The notes: a model not told the origin generated them from the letters alone. Positions 4,733-50,058 are shown, counted from the stretch's first letter. The stretch is DNA of 64,000 nt from Oscillospiraceae bacterium (GCA_040766825.1 JAXGPS010000001.1:13411-77410); one strand, 5' to 3'. A program made the numbers and translations.

Positions 4733-4984
4733 ATATATTATCTGCTTTGAAAAGTAGAGTACCCTTTTTTTAATTCGCAAAGAGAATGACGGGTGTTTCA
4801 ACTGAAACTCTTCTGTGACCGTCACGGCTTATTATTGGTGAAGGACACCTTGGAGCTTTTGTACGATTAAGTACAAACGTTATTTCACGTTACGAAATTT
4901 AAGAGCAGTTATTTGCTGAATCAGGGTGGTACCACGGCTAATCTTGTCGTCCCTTACATTTTGTGTAAGAGGACGGCTTTTTAT
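4733..4984 (+). promoter_or_regulatory. T-box leader (tRNA-sensing riboswitch) controlling the methyltransferase-hisS-aspS unit
   Basis: The conserved T-box sequence AATCAGGGTGGTACCACGG is at 4919-4937 and carries the UGGU antiterminator bulge. The terminator hairpin cgtccctta…taagaggacg plus a T-run lies at 4946-4984. Upstream there is a GA-motif/AGTAGAG stem-I region. Confidence 0.65.
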
Positions 4985-7127: not shown

Positions 7128-7167
7128 TCTAAACTTGGAGGAAAAATAATGGCAATCAATCAAAGGA

Positions 7168-8930
7168 ATGAAACGCACCCATTACTGCGGCAAAGTCGAG
7201 GAATTGGCAATGTCGTAACAGTAGGTGGTTTTGTTCAGAAAATACGTGACCTTGGCAACCTTATATTTATAGACCTTCGTGACTCAACAGGAATTGTTCA
7301 GCTTGCTTTCAACGACACGACTTCTCGTGAAATCTTTGAAAAAGCTTCCTCTTGTCATAGCGAATACGTCCTTATGGCAACGGGTACAGTTTGCGCAAGA
7401 GAGAGCGTAAATGCTGAAATTTCCACCGGAAGTGTTGAAATCATGGTAACTGAGCTGCGCATTCTTGCAAAGGCTCAAACGCCTCCTTTTGAAATCACAA
7501 ATGAAACTAAGGTTAACGAAAATCTACGACTAAAGCACCGTTACCTTGACTTGCGCAGAGCGCCACTTCAGCAAAATATAATCAAGCGCCATCATATTGC
7601 AAGAGTAACTCGTGAATATTTCTATGAAAACGGCTTTATCGAAATCGAAACACCTATGCTGATTAAATCAACTCCTGAGGGCGCTCGTGACTATCTTGTG
7701 CCATCAAGAGTTCATAAGGGCAACTTCTACGCTCTCCACAATCACCTCAAATTTACAAGCAACTTCTCAGTGGTTTCTGGCTATGACAGATATATTCAGC
7801 TTGCAGATGTTTCCGTGATGAGGACTTACGTGCTGACAGACAGCCCGAATTTACTCAAATCGACTTAGAGATGGCTTTTTGTTGACATTGATGATGTTCT
7901 TGAAATGATTGAGGGCTATATTCACCGTCTTTTCAAAGATGTAATGAATATTGAACTTGCGCAAAAGCTTCCAAGACTTACATTTACTGACGCAATGAAC
8001 CGCTATGGCTCGGACAAGCCTGACACTCGTTTTGAAATGGAAATTCAAGATATTTCCTCTCTTGTTAAGGACTGTGGATTTGGAGTTTTCACCTCTGCAA
8101 TTGAGGCTGGAGGTAGTGTTCGCTGTATCGTTGCTAAAAACGCTGCTGCTACTCTCACTCGTAAGGAAATCGACAAGCTAACTGAAATGGTCCGTGGAAT
8201 TGGCGCTAAAGGACTTGCTTACGTTAGATGGGTGGACGATGCACCTAGCTGTTCTTTTGGCAAGTTCATGGGCGAGGGCGAACTTGATGCTATCCTTAAT
8301 GCTACTAACTGCGAAAAGGGTGACGTTATGCTTATCGTTGCCGATAAAAACAGCGTTACATTGCCTGTTCTTGGTGCTTTGCGTCTTAAAGTTGCAAAAC
8401 AGCTTGACATTATTCCTGAGGGTTGGAACTTCCTCTGGATTACAGAAATGCCATTCTTTGAATGGGACGAAGATAATCAAAAGTGGCTTGCTATGCACCA
8501 CCCGTTCACAATGCCTATGGAAGAATGTCTTGAATATTTGGATACTGAACCGGGTAAGGTTCGTGCTAAGGCTTATGACCTTGTTCTTAACGGTATTGAG
8601 CTTTCAAGTGGCTCAATCCGTATTACAGACTACGAACTTCAGCAGAAAATGTTTGAGGCACTCGGTCTTGAGGCTGAAGAAATTGAGGCTAAATTCGGTT
8701 TCTTAGTTGATGCTTATAAGTACGGCGCTCCTCCTCATGGTGGTGCTGGAATTGGTCTTGACCGTCTTGCGATGTTGCTATGCGGTGAGGAAAGTTTACG
8801 TGATGTTACTGCATTCCCTAAAATGCAGAACGCTTCAGAACTTATGTCCTCCTGCCCTGCTACTGTGGACGATGAAAGCCTTGAAGTTCTAGGAATAAGC
8901 ATCGTTCCTGAAGAAAAAACCGAAGACTAA
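7168..8930 (+). pseudogene. aspS: aspartate--tRNA ligase AspS, about 3 frameshifts
   Basis: The true start, MKRTHYCGKVEELAMS, is in a different frame from the track ORF. It continues …LIFIDLRDSTGIVQ…FYALHNHLKF…RYIQLA|[25 protein letters not shown]|…GAPPHGGAGIGLDRLAMLL…. Confidence 0.85.
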
Positions 8931-34080: not shown

Positions 34081-34377
34081 ATTTCCTTGATGCAGTGAAG
34101 AGCTAATCTTTTAGATGAGCGCGCTTTTGATGAGAAGTGTTCCATTCTCTCTCGTGCGTATCTGCAGCTCTCCTACTCTGAGGGGATGACACTAAGGCTG
34201 TAGTATGCTAAAAATTCCGCCGAATACGCTGACAAGGGCTTTATTCAAACCCTACTGTTAAATAAACTTTAGATTCAGCTTGCAAAACTGCTTTAAAAAA
34301 TTAGTGATTACTACTCAAGTTAGGAAGAAAAAATTTAATGAAAGAGTTATTTTGAAAACGTATAAGGAGATGATTGG

Positions 34378-34800
34378 AATAATGTTTGTTTGTCACGGCA
34401 ATATCTGCCGCTCTCAGCTGGCAAGATTCGTAATGCGTGATATGATTGAAAAAATGGACTTTTTCTGATAGGATTTCCGTCTGTTCTCCGCCACATCAAC
34501 CGAAGAAATGGAAATCCCGTTTCACCCCGGCACAAGACGTAAGCTTAATGAGGTGAATATTTCCAGTAGTTGGAAAAACCTTGCCGTGCAATTGTAACCC
34601 GCTCGGATTACGATAAAGTACGATTATTTCATCGATTGTTCATGGAATATTGATAATAGCAAAATTCTTAAGCCAGCGTCCCTAAAAACGCGAAATTTAC
34701 CGCCTGCTTGATTTTACAGATAAGTCGGGGGAAATTGCCGATCCTTATTCTCAGGGGATTTTGCAGGCGCACTTATAAGGATATATGCTGGTTGCTCTGC
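34378..34800 (+). pseudogene. low-molecular-weight protein-tyrosine phosphatase / ArsC-like remnant, multiple frameshifts
   Basis: The N-terminal P-loop is MIGIMFVCHGNICRS (CX5R). The C-terminal DPY region (…DFTDKSGEIADPYSQG…) is found in other frames. Confidence 0.5.
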
Positions 34801-36045: not shown

Positions 36046-37313
<1,268 letters not shown>

Positions 37314-37449: not shown

Positions 37450-38322
37450 GCCTTTATTATGAAGCTCGCAGTTTTTCTTTTACTAGCGGCTTGTCCTCTT
37501 GATAAGTAACTCCGAACCACTCGCCAGTTGGAAATTACATCAATTGAAATTTCGCCGTCCTCCATCATTTCGCTAATCATGACAGGGAGGGGATATTCCT
37601 CCCTTAATTCGCTATCTGATAGGGAGCGCTAAGAACTCACTAAGCCTTTGTTCTGCTCTTTCAAATATCCATGGGAGCAATCCCAAAATTCGATGAAACA
37701 AGCGAATTCGGGTTTTAGCTCCACTCTCCGAGTATCTCGCCGTTATTTGAAACGCTCACTTTATAGGTTTCTGTGATGTTTTAAGCTTGCCGTCTTCATT
37801 AGCGGAACAAAGTCCTCGTGTAACCTGACCGTTTTAGGGAAACGGTATTTTCAAGGCAGTATGCCACCATTGAAGCACTGTTTTTTGCGTCCATTTTGCA
37901 AAGAGAGGCTTCCATTTTTTCAAATGCATCACGTCCGTAAAAATCATCTGCATTAATGACTTGCAAACGGCTCATTTGCCTTTTTTGCTGAAAGTATAGC
38001 GTGAACAGTGCCGTAAAGCTTCTCTGCCGATATGGGCGCTTTATAAAAGCTTGGTAAAGATGCAAACTCCTGAATTTGCGAATTCTACCTGTATTTTATC
38101 ACCAACTCTCTGCTGAACCATTGCACTAAAACTCTCAAGCATATCACGCTTAATTACAAAAACAACCTTTGTAAAGCCTGCACGAATTGCATCAGAAATT
38201 GAGTATTCCATCAATATTTCGCCGTTCGGTCCAAGCTCTGCTGTTTGCTTTCTTTCAGCAGTGCTATATCGTGAGCCCATTCCGGCTGCCATAATTAATA
38301 ATATCATTTTATCGCCTTTCAT
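37450..38322 (-). pseudogene. sugar-phosphate nucleotidyltransferase-family protein, at least 2 frameshifts
   Basis: MILLIMAAGMGSRY…KQ…LGPNGE is an NTP-transferase G-x-G-x-R motif. Downstream segments are in other frames. Confidence 0.45.
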
Positions 38323-38501: not shown

Positions 38502-39404
38502 ATGCAATTTATACATATTGCTATTTTTTATGATTTTAGGCGTGAATTTCAAGTTGTTTATAAATATTTCAGATATTTTTCAGACAAAAGTTGTATTATT
38601 AGCTTAACCGTTAAACCGACATTCCAAAACAAGCGAGGTGTAAAAAAGAAATTGAGCCAAAAAATATTCAAAAGACACGAAAAGAAATACTTTATTCCAG
38701 AGCAAACTTTTCCTGATCTGTTAAAAAAACTTGAAGAGTATATGGAGATTGACAGTTACGGCAAGCATACGATTTGTAATCTCTACTTTGATACAGATGA
38801 TTTCCAAATTATACGTACTTCTATTGAAAAACCTATTTACAAAGAAAAACTTCGCTTGCGATGCTACGGTATTCCGTCTGACGATGATACTGTTTTTCTT
38901 GAAATCAAGAAAAAGTTCAAGGGAGTTGTCTACAAGCGCCGTGTGGCAATAAAATGTTCTGAGGCAAGGTTATGGTGCGAAAACGGCACTATTCCTAAAA
39001 GCTTAGCAGACGACTATACCAACCATCAAATAATGAAAGAAATTATTTTCTTTAGGGATAGATATGGAGTTTCTCCGAAAATGTATCTAGCATACGATAG
39101 GATTGCCTTATTCGAAAAGGAAAACCCCAACTTCCGTTTGACATTCGACTCAAATATCCGAAGTCGTGAAAACGACCTTAACCTATCTCACGGTGATAAT
39201 GGTGTTCCCCTCCTAAAATCAGGCGGGCGAATTATGGAGATAAAAACGACAGAGGCTATCCCTCTTTGGCTGTCTAGTATTCTTAACGATATGAAATTGT
39301 TTCCGACTTCATTTTCAAAGTACGGGAAAACTTATGAAAATAAGTTTTTAGCCGAAAAATCTGCAACCATTAACGATAAATCTTTACAAGAAATAAATAC
39401 TTAA
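38502..39404 (+). CDS. VTC-domain (CYTH-like polyphosphate-polymerase domain) protein
   Basis: …FKRHEKKYFIPEQ…YFDTDDFQIIRTS…KLRLRCYG…EIKKKFKGVVYKRR…EIKT… follows the VTC/CYTH basic-residue pattern. The true start may be an internal TTG near 38651. Confidence 0.7.
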   Translation: MQFIHIAIFYDFRREFQVVYKYFRYFSDKSCIISLTVKPTFQNKRGVKKKLSQKIFKRHEKKYFIPEQTFPDLLKKLEEYMEIDSYGKHTICNLYFDTDDFQIIRTSIEKPIYKEKLRLRCYGIPSDDDTVFLEIKKKFKGVVYKRRVAIKCSEARLWCENGTIPKSLADDYTNHQIMKEIIFFRDRYGVSPKMYLAYDRIALFEKENPNFRLTFDSNIRSRENDLNLSHGDNGVPLLKSGGRIMEIKTTEAIPLWLSSILNDMKLFPTSFSKYGKTYENKFLAEKSATINDKSLQEINT

Positions 39405-39426
39405 CTTTAGAAAGGACATTTTTATC

Positions 39427-40024
39427 ATGTTTAACTCTATTCTCGAAAATTCTGTGTCAGGACTATCAATGACTAGTGCACTTATCTGCACAGCCGTATC
39501 CCTTGCACTTGGCGTAATTATCGCACTTACTTATATGTTCACCGGCAAATGTACAAAGGGCTTTGCTGTAACGCTAGTAGTTCTCCCTGCTGTTGTGCAG
39601 GTTGTTATCATGCTTGTAAATGGCAATCTCGGGATAGGTGTTGCTATTGTGGGAGCGTTTAACCTCGTTCGTTACCGTTCAGTACCCGGCACATCTAAAG
39701 AAATCTGCATAATCTTCTTTGCAATGGCTGCCGGTCTTGCAACGGTATCGGATACATCACATACGCTGTTATGTTCACTATAATAATATGTGCAATTTAC
39801 TTTGTTTTAATGAAAACCGATTTGCTGAAAGCAAGTCTGCTGAAAAGCAACTACGCATAGTAATTCCTGAAAGTTTAGACTACAACGGTGCTTTTGATGA
39901 CATTTTTGAGAAGTATACTTCCACTTGCTCCCTTGAGCGTGTTAAGACAACAAACCTCGGCAGTATGTTTGATTTAACATATATAGTTAAACTAAAAAAG
40001 ACATCAGCGAAAAGGAACTTATAG
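39427..40024 (+). CDS. DUF4956-family membrane protein (frameshifted near 39770)
   Basis: Three TM segments are followed by the C-terminal soluble domain …RIVIPESLDYNGAFDDIFEKYTSTCSLERVKTTNLGSMFDLTYIVKL, read in another frame. Confidence 0.6.
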
Positions 40025-40114
40025 ACGAAATTAGATGCCGTAACGGCAATCTAACAATTGCTCTTCAAAAGTTGATAATTCTGTTGAAACATTGTAAAAA
40101 AGAAAGGATTTTTC

Positions 40115-42099
40115 ATGCTAAAAAAACCTGTTATTGCTGTTATTTGTACTCTTGCTTTGTTATCAGGTTGTACAAATACTTTTCTACTGTTGACATCACA
40201 GAAGCGACATCTTCGGCAGACAGTAACACGGACAATCTAAACTCTATTTCAGCCTCTCAAAGCTCTGTAATCACACCCAAAACCATTGATATTGCAGATA
40301 CTGAAATTTCATCAGCGTCTAATGGACAGCTTATCACCTTTAACGAGTCCATCTCCTTTAATGGAAGTGGCGCAAAGGTTTCAAGCAGCACTATAACCAT
40401 ATCCTCAGCAGGAGTTTACACTCTGGAAGGAACGTCCTCAGACGCAGCTATAATCATTGATGCTTCAAAGGACGACGACATAACCTTAGTACTAAACGGA
40501 GTAAATCTTGCTTGCAAAAACTCTGCTGCAATTTATGTCAAAAAGGCTGGCAATGTAACTATCACGCTTGCCGAAAACACCACAAACACCATATCTGACG
40601 GCAATTCCTACACAATAACCCTTGACGGAGAGGAAGAAGCTGCCTCAGCAATCTTCTCAAAGTCTGACCTTCTATTCAACGGAAGTGGTACTCTCAATGT
40701 AAACGGGAACTGTAACAACGGTATCACTTCTAAAGACGGAATTAAACTTGCCGACGGAACTATAAATGTCACTTCAAACAACAACGGCATTAAGGGCAAG
40801 GACTACATTGTATGCGCTAATGTGTGCTTAAATATTTCATCCGTTGGGGATAGCTTGAAGTCCTCAAATATAGACGACCCTTCACTCGGATATATCGCAA
40901 TTTATAGCGGAGAATACTCACTTTCCTCCTCCGAGGATACCATTCAAGCCGAAACAGAGCTTATAATAGACGGCGGTACTTTTAATTTAGTAAGCGGTGG
41001 TGGCTCTGTAAACGCTCCTGCTCATTCAGCAGAGAATGATTGGAAGAATTTTTGGGGCAACAGTGACACTTCTGATACAGAAACAACAAGCACTAAGGCT
41101 ATAAAAGGCGGTACTGCGGTGTTCATTTCAAACGGCGATTTCACCATTGACAGTGCCGATGACGGTATACATTCAAACGGCGATGTTTCAATTCTTGGCG
41201 GAACTTTTAATATCTCTAGTGGCGATGATGGAATTCACGCCGACAATGACACTACAATTTCCGGCGGGAATATAAGTATCCTCAAAAGCTATGAAGGCAT
41301 TGAGGGGGCTACTATAACCTTTAACGGTGGAAATGTTGCTGTTATCGCCTCCGATGACGGACTTAACGCCTCTAGCGGTTCTACCGAAATGGGTGGCAGA
41401 GGTGGCTTCGAGGTCGATTCTTCAGCGATAATCACAATCAACGGTGGAATTATTTCCGTCAACGCTAATGGCGATGGCGTGGACTCAAACGGCAATATAA
41501 TCATGAACGGCGGAGAGCTTTATGTCGAAGGACCTACTAACAGTGGTAACGGTGCTCTTGACTATGCGGGCTCGTTTACCGTCAACGGCGGTACTGCTAT
41601 TGCAATCGGCAGCACAGGAATGGCGCAAGGTGTAAGCTCTGACTCACCTCAAGCCGGTATCATGGCAAACGTTAGTGGTAAAAGCGGCGATGTTATAACT
41701 ATTCTTAGTTCTGACGGAAATGTCCTTATGACTTATACGGCAAATAAAAACTTTTCTTCTGTGGTTGCTTGCTGCAAAGGTATGGAGAAAGATTTAACCT
41801 ATTCTATTCAAATAAACGGTGGTAACTCCGTATCCGCAACTGCCGGCACATCTTCTGGTGGCATGGGCGGTATGGGTGGAGGCTGGGGTGGCGACCGTGG
41901 CAACCGTGGTCGTGACAAAAGCAACACCCCTGAAAACTTTGAAGGAATGACTCCACCTGAGGGATTTGAAAGTATGACTCCTCCAGAAAATATGGGGGAA
42001 ATGACTCCTCCAGATGGTATGACTCCTCCAAACGGTATGGAACGTCCTAACGGAATGGGCGAGATGGCTCCTCCGAATGAAACTACCTCTTTAAGTTAA
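40115..42099 (+). CDS. Cthe_2159-like parallel beta-helix lipoprotein (N-terminal frameshift near 40185)
   Basis: The lipobox signal is MLKKPVIAVICTLALLSGC. The body is built of repeated DG(I/L)x..G..xI.GG motifs such as SGDDGIHADNDTTISGGNISI, which indicate beta-helix coils. The tail is Gly-rich and carries (E/G)MTPP(E/D/N)G repeats. Confidence 0.65.
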
Positions 42100-42242
42100 G
42101 GTTCTGGAAATTTTTCTATTATTACGTAAAGGGGAATAATCCTCCCCTTTCAAAAATAAAACCGCTCTTCAAAAAGGAGTTCGTCTTAGGGATTTACGAA
42201 AACAAGTAAATTTTGACCGACCGTCTTTAGCGGAAAATAAAT

Positions 42243-42283
42243 CGCCCACACAGGAGTTTATTGCTCTTGTGTGGGCGGTTTGC
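42243..42283 (+). terminator. intrinsic terminator
   Basis: cgcccacacaggag…ctcttgtgtgggcg followed by a T-rich stretch. Confidence 0.5.
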
Positions 42284-42838: not shown

Positions 42839-43347
42839 TCAGCGCACCACCTTTCTTGAGGCAAGGTAGTCAACAGAAATAATATTGCCGGTCATCTCTT
42901 TGAATGGTGTGCCAAAGCATATAATAGTGGTAGGGTCTAACTTGTTAAGCATTTCGTTATATCCACGCATAAACTCTATTTTGTTGCCTTTGCACCCAAT
43001 CATACCAATCGCAACAATTGCATTGCGTTCGACTCCGTCAGCGTAAATCATAACTACTTGGGAGTGCTCCAACTGATTGTAGGAACAACGGTTAAACCTT
43101 TGCTTTGCCAATATGCCCCACACCACTCGTTTGCGGTTTTTTCAACCGAGGAACCATCTTCACTCTTTTTTGAAAGCAATTCCCTTTTTTCTATGTTAAA
43201 TGCTGAATAAGGGATAATTTTTACGCCCATTTTTTGAGCGATTTCAAATCCGCTTATTGGAATGCAAGATATGTCGTATTCGGTAAACATATCTACTACT
43301 AGCATCTTAATTTCTTCGTATCGCTCGTTTGATGGTCTAATTCCCAA
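42839..43347 (-). CDS. hypothetical protein (one frameshift near 43090), co-transcribed with the XRE regulator
   Basis: MGIRPSNERYEEIKMLVVDMFTEYDISCIPISGFEIAQKMGVKIIPYSAF…WCGAYWQSKGLTVVPTI| then …VMIYADGVERNAIVAIGMIGCKGNKIEFMRGYNEMLNKLDPTTIICFGTPFKEM…. There is no HEXXH motif. Confidence 0.45.
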
Positions 43348-43350
43348 TCG

Positions 43351-43662
43351 TTAATCCTCCCCAAACAGTGCGTTTATTAAATCTCTTTTTTCTTCTGCCG
43401 TCATTGTATTCGCACCTCTAGCAAGCATTCTTTTTACCCGTGGATAGTCAAACTCATCGTTTTCAATTCCTAAAAGATAGTCGGATGTTGTGCGTAAAGC
43501 AGTGGCAATATTTGCAATCGTATCGGGCTTTGGTTCCCTGTCACCCGAAATATACCTTGACATAACGCCCTCCGTTACACCAATTCTTTCCGCCAATTCC
43601 TTTTGAGTCATATTGCTTCTGATTAATAATCCTGATATTCGTTTTCCTAGTTCTTTACTCAT
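43351..43662 (-). CDS. XRE-family helix-turn-helix transcriptional regulator
   Basis: MSKELGKRISGLLIRSNMTQKELAERIGVTEGVMSRYISGDREPKPDTIANIATAL is a canonical HTH_3 domain. RBS AAAGGAG. Confidence 0.8.
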   Translation of the reverse strand: MSKELGKRISGLLIRSNMTQKELAERIGVTEGVMSRYISGDREPKPDTIANIATALRTTSDYLLGIENDEFDYPRVKRMLARGANTMTAEEKRDLINALFGED

Positions 43663-43885
43663 AATGAAAACTCCTTTCATAGAGTGCATTTTTGCACGCT
43701 TATATTATAACACTACACTTGCCAATTTGTCAAGTGTAGTTGCCAAAAAGACCAAACAGCCCGTTTTCCTCTGTTTGGTCTTTTTTATAATTAATAATAC
43801 CACTACCCAAAATGTTTCGAAAATTGTATAAATGATGAGTTTTCACTTGTTGTACTTAGTTTATCACAAAGAGGTGTGGTTTTGT

Positions 43886-44611
43886 TTATTCATCTACAAT
43901 ATCCTTGTCATCAATCATTGCCGCAAAGATAATCATCGGAGCACATTCAATAATTCCGTTTAAAAGCAATCCTGTTTTATTGCCAAGTAAGGAAACATAA
44001 CTAAGCAACGTGCCTAATTCAATGTTCATAAGCCTAATAACAGTAACTGCGCTAACTGTTGCATTTGCCATTGCAATAAGCACAATTCCAACTACGCAGA
44101 GCCATGCCCATGTGCGATCGGTCTTTGCCTTACCGTAAAAAAGTCTGAATATTTGAGCAAAAAACACATACCTAATGCTCATTCTAATCAAAGCGCTAAT
44201 AAATGCTACTATCGTTACTAAAATTTCTATGCTCTTTGCGCTATCGAAAACGCTTGCCATAATCATTCCGCTTGCACTCTCAAGCGCAAAATCAAGAACA
44301 ACAATAACTATGGCAACACCTATGCAAGCAAGGGATAGAAACCTTTTCTTAAGTTGGTTGACACTATTTATAATTCTTGCACACAAAAGCTCTCCAACTA
44401 TAAAGAATAAGGCTATAAACCCAACATCTAAAGCAAGTTGTGCTACAATATCGACGCTCGTTACAATGGACGAAACTGCAATAATGCAATTCAAAGCCAT
44501 TAAAATACAAAGTGCAATTAGTACACTTATTTTTCTACTAACTTTTGGCATAGCTACTCCTCCAAACATACTATTTTTATTAATTATAGCATTACTTGCT
44601 GACAATGTCAA
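43886..44611 (-). CDS. hypothetical polytopic membrane protein
   Basis: An ORF of about 220-240 aa with 6 TM segments. No family was recognised. Confidence 0.5.
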   Translation of the reverse strand: MTLSASNAIINKNSMFGGVAMPKVSRKISVLIALCILMALNCIIAVSSIVTSVDIVAQLALDVGFIALFFIVGELLCARIINSVNQLKKRFLSLACIGVAIVIVVLDFALESASGMIMASVFDSAKSIEILVTIVAFISALIRMSIRYVFFAQIFRLFYGKAKTDRTWAWLCVVGIVLIAMANATVSAVTVIRLMNIELGTLLSYVSLLGNKTGLLLNGIIECAPMIIFAAMIDDKDIVDE

Positions 44612-47634: not shown

Positions 47635-48856
47635 ATGAGAAAAATGGCGAGAATTACAGCATCTTTGCTAATAGGTATTAACCATGACAGTTTGCGGTAT
47701 AACTGGATATTATATGTTCAAATTGCCTGACAACTACTATGTGCAAGGTGACAGCGATTTAGTGCTTTCTTGTAATTTTGAAATTACAGCTCAAAACATG
47801 GGGAGTACTGCACAAGCGCTTTCGACACAAACTCAACCTCTATCAAAGGAGGTTGAACTTCGGCTTTTTGGTATAATTCCCATAAAAACCGTAAATATTC
47901 AATCAGTTGACAAAACAGTGCTTGTTCCGGGAGGAAATCCCTTTGGCATACTCTTGCAAACGGAGGGTGTAATGGTAGTAAGCCTTGGAGAGGTCGATAC
48001 TAGCGACGGTCTTATCTGCCCGGCTTCTGATGCAGGTATCAAAACAGGCGATATTGTCCTCAAAATTAACAATAAGAAAATCAGTTCGAACTCTGATATT
48101 CAAGAAAAAATTGCATCATCTGACGGAGAAGCTGTAACAGTTCTTCTTCGCCGTGATGAAAAGGAAATCAGTTTGCAAATGACTCCTGCATACTCTGTAA
48201 ACGCCGGCTCATACAAGGCTGGAATGTACGTTCGTGATAGTTGTGCCGGTATCGGCACCGTTACCTTTTACGATCCTGCTACGGGCATTTTCGGAGGTCT
48301 TGGACACCCTGTTTGTGACGTTGACACTGGAAATGTCATGACAATTTCAAGCGGTGAAGTCGTGGGCGTTTCAATTAATGGAGTAAATAAAGGCTCTGCT
48401 GGAAAGCCGGGGGAATTAGTCGGAAGCTTTACTTCAAGAAAAACCCTCGGAAGTCTTAATCTTAATGAATTTTGCGGGCTTTTCGGACGTTTAAGTACCT
48501 CGCTTAACTATAACTCAGCAATTCCAATGGGACTGAAACAGGAGGTAAATCTAGGAGAAGCCACTATCCTCTCAACCGTTGACGGCTCAACTCCAAAAGA
48601 ATACTCAATTGAGATTGAGAAGATAGACTACCGAGATAAAGACAACTCCAAAAACTTCGTCATACGAATAACCGATGCTGAGCTTATAGAGCTTACTGGT
48701 GGTATTGTGCAAGGTATGAGCGGAAGTCCAATTATTCAGAATGGACAACTTGTTGGTGCTGTCACTCATGTTTTTGTCAACGACCCTACTCGTGGTTACG
48801 GTATCTTCTGTGAAACTATGTATGAGAACTCAAAGAATGTAAATGCGCTTTCTTAA
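47635..48856 (+). CDS. spoIVB: stage IV sporulation protein B (S55 signalling serine peptidase), N-terminal frameshift near 47685
   Basis: The signal/TM start MRKMARITASLLIGIN| is in a different frame from the body. The PDZ domain is …GIKTGDIVLKINNKKI…. The catalytic region is …GSPIIQNGQLVGAVTHVFVNDPTRGYGIF… with the Ser in GSP. Confidence 0.85.
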
Positions 48857-48992
48857 CTAATATAAAAAACTCCGTTCTTCATTAGAAATTATTTGCATTT
48901 TTAAAATTCTGCTCAAAAATAGTAAAAACCGTTGCAAAATTTTACTAAAGAATATATAATATAAGTGTTCTATTTTTGTTTAAATATCGTTA

Positions 48993-49014
48993 AACCTCGA
49001 AAAAATCGAGGTTT
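48993..49014 (+). terminator. weak terminator hairpin after spoIVB
   Basis: aacctcga aaaaa tcgaggtt, then only a short TTT run. Confidence 0.3.
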
Positions 49015-49151
49015 GGCGATATATTAAGTGTCAACATATAAACTGTATTGGATTTTTTTGTAAAAATATTTGTAAAAACTATTGATTTTTTGGAAAAGCT
49101 ATGGTAATATATGTAAGTAGTCAATTACACAATCTTTAGGAGGAACTAAAA

Positions 49152-49924
49152 ATGAACAACAAAACAAAGGTACTTATAACAGATAACAGCGCAGAATACG
49201 GAATACTACTTGCAAACAAGCTACGTAATTTAGACGTATTTGCTATTACTTGCGCAAAAGACGGAATAGCAATTCTTTAATCTATTAAGAATGAATGCCC
49301 TGATGTAGTAATTATTGATGCTGTGCTTCCACTTTCTGATGCTTCTGATATTATCCGTAAAGCTTCTGGCACGGTTTACAAAAAGCCTAAATTTATTGTC
49401 GTATCCGCTTATGCAAGCCCTATAGTAGAGCAAAGAGCAATGGAGGCTGGCGCTGAGTTGTTTGTAACCAAGCCTTTTGATATGGATCTTATGTGCCAAC
49501 GCTTGCTCGCTTTAACCCCTGCTACCTCTACATATTCCCAGCAAGAGTCCCCTAGAAGCGACATGGATCTAAAAGTGGTAGTAACGGACATTATCCACCA
49601 AATCGGAGTCCCTGCTCATATAAAAGGATACCATTATTTAAGAGAGGCTATCATGCTTTCTGTAAAAGATGATGAAATGCTTGAGAGCGTAACAAAGCTT
49701 CTCTACCCAACAGTAGCGAAAGCTTTCTCAACAACACCTTCAAGAGTGGAAAGAGCAATACGTCATGCAATTGAAGTCGCATGGGATAGAGGCGACATTG
49801 ATACTCTAAACTCTTTCTTCGGATATACTGTAAATACTGGAAAGGGTAAGCCTACAAACTCCGAATTTATCGCCCTTATAACTGATAAGCTTAGACTTCA
49901 GTATAGCCACGCTCTTATGGCTTA
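49152..49924 (+). CDS. spo0A: sporulation master regulator Spo0A, interrupted by an in-frame TAA at 49278-49280 (codon 43)
   Basis: The receiver domain starts [12 protein letters not shown]…. Spo0A-specific C-terminal motifs are [34 protein letters not shown] and FGYTV…[11 protein letters not shown]. The stop is …[19 protein letters not shown]. The gene is adjacent to spoIVB as in other sporeformers. Confidence 0.9.
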
Positions 49925-50058
49925 AATTTGCCCCTTATATCAATTTTGCTATACAGATCTAAATTGATATATTACATTACATTCCCCCTTAAGGCAATAC
50001 TTCACAACGCACGCTTGATGGTTCTGTGCGGTATTGCCTTTCCCTTATCAAGGTTTAT

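Follow-up and report, generated by a model that had tools for sequence, protein, structure and literature searches.

The subject of this work is a three-gene cluster in a stretch of 64,000 nucleotides from an Oscillospiraceae bacterium (GCA_040766825.1 JAXGPS010000001.1:13411-77410); we call the whole stretch the window and count all positions from its first letter. The cluster encodes a VTC-domain protein, a DUF4956 membrane protein and a Cthe_2159-family beta-helix lipoprotein. This arrangement recurs in related genomes far beyond chance, and the first protein, as modelled, most resembles the eukaryotic polyphosphate polymerase domain. An envelope-associated role in the synthesis or binding of a polymer, as proposed in an earlier reading of the same DNA (hereafter the sequence-only reading), is plausible judging by the sequences. 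The explanation that we favour, and hold as possible rather than probable, is that a polyphosphate polymerase docked at the membrane works together with a surface lipoprotein that binds polyanions or cations. Its observed basis is the domain identities, the fold similarity, the conservation of the mapped tunnel residues, the tight gene coupling and the synteny.

All three reading frames lie on the plus strand in one orientation, between 38.5 and 42.1 kb of the window. The first gene (38652-39404, PF09359) is intact and encodes a 250-amino acid triphosphate tunnel metalloenzyme (TTM) with a VTC domain. The DUF4956 gene (39427-40097, PF16316) encodes 224 amino acids after four one-base repairs and the lipoprotein gene (40115-42099, PF14262) 661 amino acids after one repair. 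The intergenic gaps measure 22 and 17 nt, respectively. A terminator-like hairpin of 20 pairs with a T-rich tail (42238-42282, plus strand), situated about 140 nt 3′ of the lipoprotein stop codon, is the sole strong terminator-like structure and probably marks the end of the operon. Because the gaps are short, this hairpin follows the third gene and the trio is recurrent in relatives, the sequence supports a single unit, in agreement with the co-oriented, tightly spaced cluster of the sequence-only reading. The three domain calls made there were all borne out by Pfam above threshold, and the peptides quoted there are present (FKRHEKKYFIP, EIKKKF..YKRR, RIVIPESLDYNG.., MLKKPVIAVICTLALLSGC and SGDDGIHADNDTTISGGNISI). 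None of the three proteins was matched by any NCBIfam model.

VTC-domain protein

The open reading frame (ORF) 38502-39404 matched the Pfam family PF09359 with an E-value of 5.5e-47 and 160.7 bits (cut-off 23) over model positions 1-232 of 235, and the Pfam scan did not report a CYTH match. Neither an SPX domain nor a transmembrane segment is present in the protein, and the locus showed no coupling to a Vtc1-type (DUF202) membrane channel and SPX sensor. A search of PDB with the single sequence gave marginal matches only, and a profile built from 28 bacterial homologues found yeast Vtc4, Vtc2 and Vtc3 (best E 7e-6). The AlphaFold (AF2) model of the protein (pLDDT 86.3) had the Vtc4 catalytic domain 3g3r/3g3q as its nearest PDB structures (E about 3e-13 to 1e-12, best 3.4e-13, TM about 0.7). 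Vtc4, Vtc3 and Vtc2 account for all of the 13 best PDB matches, with E-values from 3e-13 to 1e-10 and query TM-scores of 0.61-0.70, and other TTM/CYTH enzymes, such as CYTH cyclase-like proteins, ygiF and TTM hydrolases, matched only from E 3e-8. In the model, the fold is a tunnel-shaped TTM beta-barrel nearest to Vtc4. The likeness to the eukaryotic polymerase domain, already noticed in the sequence-only reading, was thus recovered by both the profile and the model.

Residues were mapped onto Vtc4 by the profile alignment, with the Vtc4 segment counted from residue 191 (8i6v numbering), considering the invariant columns of the bacterial family. The pairs obtained in this way, in all of which the bacterial residue is invariant, are R8 (Vtc4 R196), K12 (K200), R68 and R70 (R264 and R266), E84 and K86 (E279 and K281), K95 and R97 (K294 and R296), Y148 and R150 (Y359 and R361) and R162 (R373). 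The bacterial residues matching the Vtc4 catalytic-residue list are K12, R68, R70, K86, Y148, R150 and R162. The yeast enzyme is inactivated by the triple mutant R264A/R266A/E426N (PMC9911596). To place Vtc4 E426 and K458 we also searched with a profile limited to the C-terminal halves of the VTC proteins, and it returned spurious DARPin matches only. The family is large, with at least 7,000 VTC-domain relatives scored in the protein-collection search, and its bacterial members are routinely labelled 'polyphosphate polymerase domain-containing protein'.

Conservation of gene order

The synteny set comprised 81 loci, 80 from a scan of species-representative genomes and the locus L001 of the closest relative. 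The DUF4956 gene directly follows the VTC gene on the same strand in 77 of the 81, and two of the other four reach a contig edge. The VTC stop and the DUF4956 start overlap or lie no more than 30 nt apart in 70 of these 77 loci (an approximate count based on ORF-length heuristics), and on account of this spacing co-translation of the two proteins as a complex is suggested. A Cthe_2159-like gene was found in about 52 loci in all: in 42 it comes directly after the pair in the same orientation, in 5 it lies upstream and is divergent, and in about 5 it is near in some other arrangement. The 42 loci span many genera. The recurrence of the trio stated in the sequence-only reading is therefore visible in this set. 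When the search was begun from the Cthe_2159 side, the same order was recovered independently, with a 384-amino acid relative after a VTC-DUF4956 pair; two other Cthe_2159 relatives stand alone. The genes flanking the trio in the 81 relatives are heterogeneous, and so are the neighbours in the 20 loci without a beta-helix gene. Several 'families' in the neighbour clustering were antisense shadow ORFs and were left out. Cultivable carriers of the full trio include Anaerotruncus colihominis DSM 17241 (L073) and Eubacterium limosum, represented in the set by a metagenome-assembled genome of the species (L004).

Two apparent VTC-DUF4956 fusions, P0443 (337 amino acids) and P0421 (256 amino acids), look like truncated, chimeric or frameshifted gene calls. 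As both domains are truncated in each, we did not count them as true fusions.

The trio had also been said to occur frequently with a CotH kinase, and this fails in the clade of the window. Using phmmer with two CotH proteins as queries, we found CotH in one, possibly two, of the 81 loci and none in the six-frame translation of the 64-kb window. The link does exist elsewhere (see below). Judging by gene neighbourhoods, VTC, DUF4956, Cthe_2159 and CotH form an association network, of which the window's clade uses a form without CotH.

Some of the related loci also have a two-component system nearby. An OmpR-class response regulator and a histidine kinase lie within about 3.5 kb of the VTC-DUF4956 pair, in varying orientation, in roughly two dozen of the 81 loci, and they are upstream of VTC in L020, L024, L028, L033, L038, L040, L044, L065, L074 and L079. 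The proteins are of the generic OmpR/PhoB class, with no equivalog reached, and the window has no such pair near the operon.

DUF4956 membrane protein

The first fragment of the DUF4956 gene (39427-39783) matched PF16316 with an E-value of 2.9e-10, and the repaired protein of 224 amino acids scored 52.1 bits against a Pfam threshold of 30.6. It aligns over 100% of its length, with up to 67% identity, to intact homologues of 220-228 amino acids. Five transmembrane helices followed by a C-terminal ACT-like domain are predicted in the protein, and not three helices as the sequence-only reading had it. According to the positive-inside rule, the conserved basic loop VRFRSxPGxSKE and the ACT-like domain would be cytoplasmic. 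The family comprises 5,880 representative clusters at E ≤ 0.001.

The arrangement of about five helices and an ACT-like C-terminus is that of MgtC/SapB/YhiD-like proteins, and some DUF4956 relatives carry the JGI label YhiD. The window protein was not matched by Pfam MgtC (PF02308). Three of 110 DUF4956 relatives show sub-threshold MgtC matches (best E 1.2e-4), MgtC being the commonest secondary Pfam match, and hhalign with E. coli YhiD gave an E-value of 0.23. The architecture is suggestive of a kinship, and the sequences point to it only weakly; no significant sequence relationship of the window protein to MgtC/SapB/YhiD proteins was found. A search of PDB with the DUF4956 sequence profile found nothing, and Foldseek with the predicted model found nothing at E ≤ 0.001. 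With both searches empty, the idea of DUF4956 as a Vtc1-like channel is unsupported.

Beta-helix lipoprotein

The ORF 40072-42099 matched the Pfam family Cthe_2159 with an E-value of 8e-87 and about 291 bits (cut-off 25.8). The protein begins with a lipoprotein signal peptide, MLKKPVIAVICTLALLSGC (40115-40171, plus strand), with the lipobox L-S-G-C at Cys19, judged by eye against the consensus [LVI][ASTVI][GAS]C; a signal peptide and a lipobox cysteine are present in most homologues. The Pfam domain, supported also by the PDB profile match, covers the N-terminal part of the beta-helix (40384-41232, plus strand), and DG(I/L)-type coils extend 3′ of it. The low-complexity tail (41869-42096, plus strand) is rich in G, P, M and E and includes GGDRGNRGR, after which four MTPP and one MAPP follow (41947-42075), confirming the MTPP-repeat tail reported before. 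Since most homologues end in a G/M/P/R/E-rich low-complexity tail of varying sequence, the MTPP repeats look like one local version of a variable family tail. With 76 D+E against only 26 K+R, the mature protein is strongly acidic, and the 46 homologues compared are uniformly so (median net charge -49.5).

Over residues 70-299 the protein is homologous to Cthe_2159 of Clostridium (Acetivibrio) thermocellum, for which crystal structures exist (PDB 4peu/4phb; E 2.3e-31); Cthe_2159 is likewise secreted and shows the same beta-helix repeat pattern. Cthe_2159 and its close relatives differ in having about 290 amino acids and in being encoded directly after a large CotH protein, whereas the window protein is encoded after VTC-DUF4956 and, at 661 amino acids, has a lipid anchor, extra coils and a tail rich in G, P and M. 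Binding to cellulose and polygalacturonic acid, as summarised in PMC6712302, is reported for Cthe_2159 itself only, and Cthe_2159 domains occur also on cellulosomal proteins (PMC7480376).

In two loci (L083 5553-8870 and L084 5556-8861) we observed the Cthe_2159 gene directly after a gene for an LTD-Fn3_assoc-CHB_HEX_C-CotH protein of secreted type and of about 800 amino acids. The copy in L084 is 99% identical to the crystallised Cthe_2159 and the other is its Acetivibrio clariflavus orthologue, where the CotH-Cthe_2159 pair sits within an exopolysaccharide biosynthesis locus. We found no mention of this gene link in the literature searched.

Gene starts and frame breaks

The VTC reading frame is open upstream as far as ATG 38502, where the public gene call P0001 of 300 amino acids begins. 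Alignments with homologues (tblastn, intact relatives) start at the residue encoded by TTG 38652, and a Shine-Dalgarno-like GAGGTG (38635-38640, plus strand), read from the sequence, precedes this codon by 11 nt. For these reasons TTG 38652 is probably the gene start, and the 50 surplus, non-homologous N-terminal residues of P0001 (38502-38651) are probably an over-extension. A promoter scan of the operon region was no better than shuffled controls, and the Rfam search found no known RNA element within or close to the operon.

Using tblastn with the intact proteins of L001 (57% identity in VTC), we found the DUF4956 gene split over frames +1/+3/+2/+1, with its conserved C-terminus in a further frame. 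The breaks, all on the plus strand, are at 39744-39745 (GG, expected GGG), 39821-39823 (TTT, expected TTTT), 39994-39999 (A6, expected A7) and 40067-40070 (A4, expected A5); all four are seen by both tblastn and repair, and repair of the fourth recovers the conserved C-terminus ...VETL. The lipoprotein gene is broken at 40180-40183 (plus strand; T4, expected T5), and one added T links the signal peptide to the beta-helix body, giving 661 amino acids from ATG 40115. One frame change in each gene, as counted previously, is therefore right for the lipoprotein and too few for DUF4956, in which tblastn and repair show four.

Each of the five breaks is the loss of one base from a homopolymer, and no stop codon interrupts the ORFs after repair. 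The purA gene directly upstream (36046-37175, minus strand) is in at least five pieces that match successive positions of the adenylosuccinate synthetase model. From 33.6 to 40.2 kb the window is error-rich, with nearly every gene in short ORF fragments, and genes elsewhere are mostly intact. Outside this stretch, aspS (aspartyl-tRNA synthetase; 7149-8930, plus strand) is seemingly in two ORFs, with ORF 7905-8930 matching the model only from position 132, which is probably a frameshift in an essential gene. Given the uniform homopolymer deletions, the absence of stops after repair and the broken purA and aspS, the five breaks are very probably assembly errors from homopolymer under-calling. 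Their number, five within 2.7 kb with four in the DUF4956 gene, could also mean that the breaks are real and that, in this strain, both genes are decaying into pseudogenes, and the public collection yielded no protein of the locus other than the VTC ORF. However, the pattern of single homopolymer deletions is that of under-calling, neither nonsense substitutions nor larger lesions are present, repair gives full-length proteins that are well conserved, and real decay sits badly with a fragmented housekeeping purA, a fragmented 33.6-40.2 kb stretch and a split aspS; we consider it very improbable. The operon is probably intact in the organism. Operons of this kind are widespread, and the copy in the window is a typical one of poor sequence quality.

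Two other gene fragments lie in the error-rich stretch. An NTP-transferase-like gene (37799-38322, minus strand) is in two pieces, and the fragment 34280-34468 looks by eye like a low-molecular-weight phosphatase.

Comparison with described systems

With the eukaryotic VTC complex the window system shares the Pfam VTC match, a model nearest to Vtc4 (E 3e-13, TM about 0.7), the pairing of the enzyme with a membrane protein and the Vtc4 tunnel residues K200, R264, R266, K281, K294, Y359, R361 and R373. Unlike that complex it has no SPX sensor domain, and its membrane part is a separate five-helix polypeptide with an ACT-like domain and no sequence or fold kinship to the three-helix Vtc1-type channel. 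The window protein also has Glu10 in place of Vtc4 Thr198, and its activity is a prediction.

The VTC-DUF4956 pair, together with CotH and DUF4832, adjoins pel operons of Gram-positive bacteria (Whitfield 2020, PMC7112168), and the same paper describes the link of CotH with VTC-type genes next to pel in streptococci, clostridia and bifidobacteria. In Streptococcus intermedius, SIR_1592 is described in a 2025 paper as an 'MgtC' transmembrane domain with an intracellular ACT domain (PMC12345266); from the operon description in PMC7112168, it is presumably the streptococcal DUF4956 homologue. With the membrane partner deleted, Pel levels rose and aggregation fell by over 50%, and deletion of CotH lowered Pel (PMC12345266). 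In view of these phenotypes and of the binding reported for Cthe_2159 in the summary of PMC6712302, the statement of the sequence-only reading that no member of the trio has a demonstrated biochemical function is slightly too strong. The pel-linked accessory genes of S. intermedius (SIR_1591-1594) resemble the window locus in the adjacent VTC and MgtC-like/ACT membrane protein genes and in the surface-polymer theme; unlike in them, the third gene of the window encodes a Cthe_2159-type lipoprotein and CotH is absent. Among 20 large window ORFs scanned with Pfam there was no pel, DUF4832 or glycosyltransferase cluster, and no search was aimed at DUF4832 or single pel genes.

In Clostridium perfringens NELoc-2, VTC-domain genes are each followed by a gene for a membrane protein of about 225 amino acids annotated as 'tubulin/FtsZ' (PMC2879425). 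From their size and predicted membrane location, these proteins would be members of DUF4956. Unlike the window, NELoc-2 has two copies of the pair, with a resolvase gene between them, and next come genes for CotH, a 685-amino acid protein, a HEAT-repeat protein and a GT2 synthase; the window has none of these. Other mentions of these genes in the literature were only entries in transcriptome, proteome or mutation tables, and we found in the searchable literature no description of the VTC-DUF4956-Cthe_2159 lipoprotein arrangement without CotH or pel.

Proposed function and its alternatives

In the scheme that we favour, the first gene would encode a cytoplasmic TTM enzyme from the VTC branch, which would dock at the membrane onto its partner, the five-helix DUF4956 protein. 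There it would polymerise inorganic polyphosphate from ATP, like yeast Vtc4, and the product would be kept at the membrane or passed across it. The strongly acidic parallel beta-helix lipoprotein, presumably anchored at the outer face of the membrane, would bind or organise a polyanion at the surface, either polyphosphate via bridging Ca2+ or Mg2+ or an acidic glycan. The parts that we infer are a polymerase rather than a hydrolase activity, the docking, how the proteins sit in the membrane, any export and what the lipoprotein binds.

Several observations weigh against this scheme. The membrane domain of DUF4956 is unlike the Vtc1/3/4 channel or any solved structure and its predicted membrane-spanning helices carry no conserved basic residues, which makes polyphosphate export speculative. 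In the enzyme, the counterparts of Vtc4 E426 and K458 are candidates only, probably E196 and K223, both invariant. Glu10 is kept in the bacterial proteins at the position of Vtc4 Thr198, and it aligns with the second Glu of ExExK, which we take to be the typical motif of hydrolytic CYTH/TTM enzymes. No assay of any bacterial VTC-domain protein was found in the searchable literature, and deletion of the polyphosphate-polymerase-domain gene of S. intermedius was without an aggregation phenotype or visible effect (PMC12345266). The net charge of the lipoprotein, about -50, disfavours direct binding of a polyanion, and the beta-helix gene is absent despite room for it in 20 of the 81 loci.

The invariant Glu10, at the presumed ExExK position where Vtc4 has T198, would suit a VTC protein that is a TTM hydrolase or signalling enzyme (tripolyphosphatase, polyphosphatase, NTPase or cyclase), with DUF4956 as an MgtC-like regulator whose ACT-like domain senses a small ligand. 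The structural matches that come next after the VTC proteins are CYTH cyclase-like proteins, ygiF and other TTM hydrolases, and the ACT-like domain and MgtC-like architecture of DUF4956, with MgtC as the commonest secondary Pfam match of its relatives, also fit, as does the similar description of the presumed streptococcal homologue (PMC12345266). Yet both sequence and fold are nearer to Vtc4/2/3 than to any hydrolytic TTM (E 3e-13 versus 3e-8 or weaker), the Pfam match is to VTC with no CYTH match reported, and the mapped polyphosphate-contacting residues are all kept, so that we regard this explanation as rather unlikely. Another explanation takes its lead from the pel neighbourhoods: VTC and DUF4956 would be an accessory module that controls the production, phosphorylation or cross-linking of a surface or secreted glycopolymer, the lipoprotein would be its glycan-binding or glycan-processing part, and polyphosphate storage would not be the purpose. 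The pair beside pel operons with CotH and DUF4832 (PMC7112168), the shifts in Pel after deletion of the membrane partner or CotH in S. intermedius (PMC12345266), the founding Cthe_2159 gene directly after CotH and, in A. clariflavus, inside an exopolysaccharide locus, and the reported glycan binding of Cthe_2159 (PMC6712302) all speak for it. In the window, however, the neighbours are housekeeping genes, with no CotH and no pel or glycosyltransferase cluster among the ORFs scanned, the flanks of the trio vary among the 81 relatives, and such a module says nothing about the chemistry of the VTC enzyme. It is unlikely in our estimate, and because that chemistry is left unspecified it partly overlaps with the polymerase scheme; the hydrolase alternative overlaps with the scheme too.

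The third gene might instead be functionally independent, a plant-fibre-binding surface protein merely co-transcribed with VTC-DUF4956. The pair occurs without it in 20 of the 81 loci, some Cthe_2159 relatives stand alone and the domain is found on cellulosomal proteins (PMC7480376). But the gene follows the pair directly and in the same orientation in 42 loci that belong to many genera, is divergent or close by in about ten others, and was found in the same order when the search started from Cthe_2159. This is hard to square with independence, which we consider improbable.

Genomic surroundings

The window is ordinary chromosome, with aspS, a cysteine desulfurase-like gene, GH95, PEPCK, PFK, feoB, purA, spoIVB, spo0A and ilvC, and no mobile element flanks the operon. 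The genes spoIVB (Peptidase_S55 and PDZ) and spo0A (Spo0A_C) are located 5.6 kb 3′ of the operon (47684-49925, plus strand), and with both present the host is an endospore-forming Firmicute. Just downstream of the operon is an Xre-type HTH gene (43351-43689, minus strand), followed by the overlapping ORFs 43054-43347 and 42839-43126 (minus strand), possibly one broken gene. A further ORF (43886-44611) encodes a multi-pass membrane protein of 241 amino acids without a Pfam match. The sole Rfam match in the window is a T-box leader (4738-4957, plus strand; RF00230, 94.1 bits, gathering score 93).

Implications

The synthesis of polyphosphate in bacteria is ascribed to PPK1 and PPK2, and VTC-type polymerases are considered eukaryotic. 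In its boldest form, the favoured scheme would make VTC-DUF4956 a third bacterial route to polyphosphate, in which a Vtc-homologous catalyst works with an MgtC-like partner and the product is delivered to the cell surface. Acidic beta-helix lipoproteins would use or organise it there, and so would secreted CotH kinases in other lineages. Such a prokaryotic route might be related, or ancestral, to the eukaryotic VTC complex, and in gut Firmicutes it might supply polyphosphate outside the cell; as a whole we hold this extension to be unlikely. The question is directly testable because cultivable carriers of the full trio exist. If the pair does make polyphosphate at the membrane, it would represent a new enzyme class in the phosphate metabolism of abundant gut and rumen Clostridia. 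It would also matter for the question of how the eukaryotic VTC complex arose, and could explain why the pair travels with surface-polymer genes such as pel, CotH and Cthe_2159.

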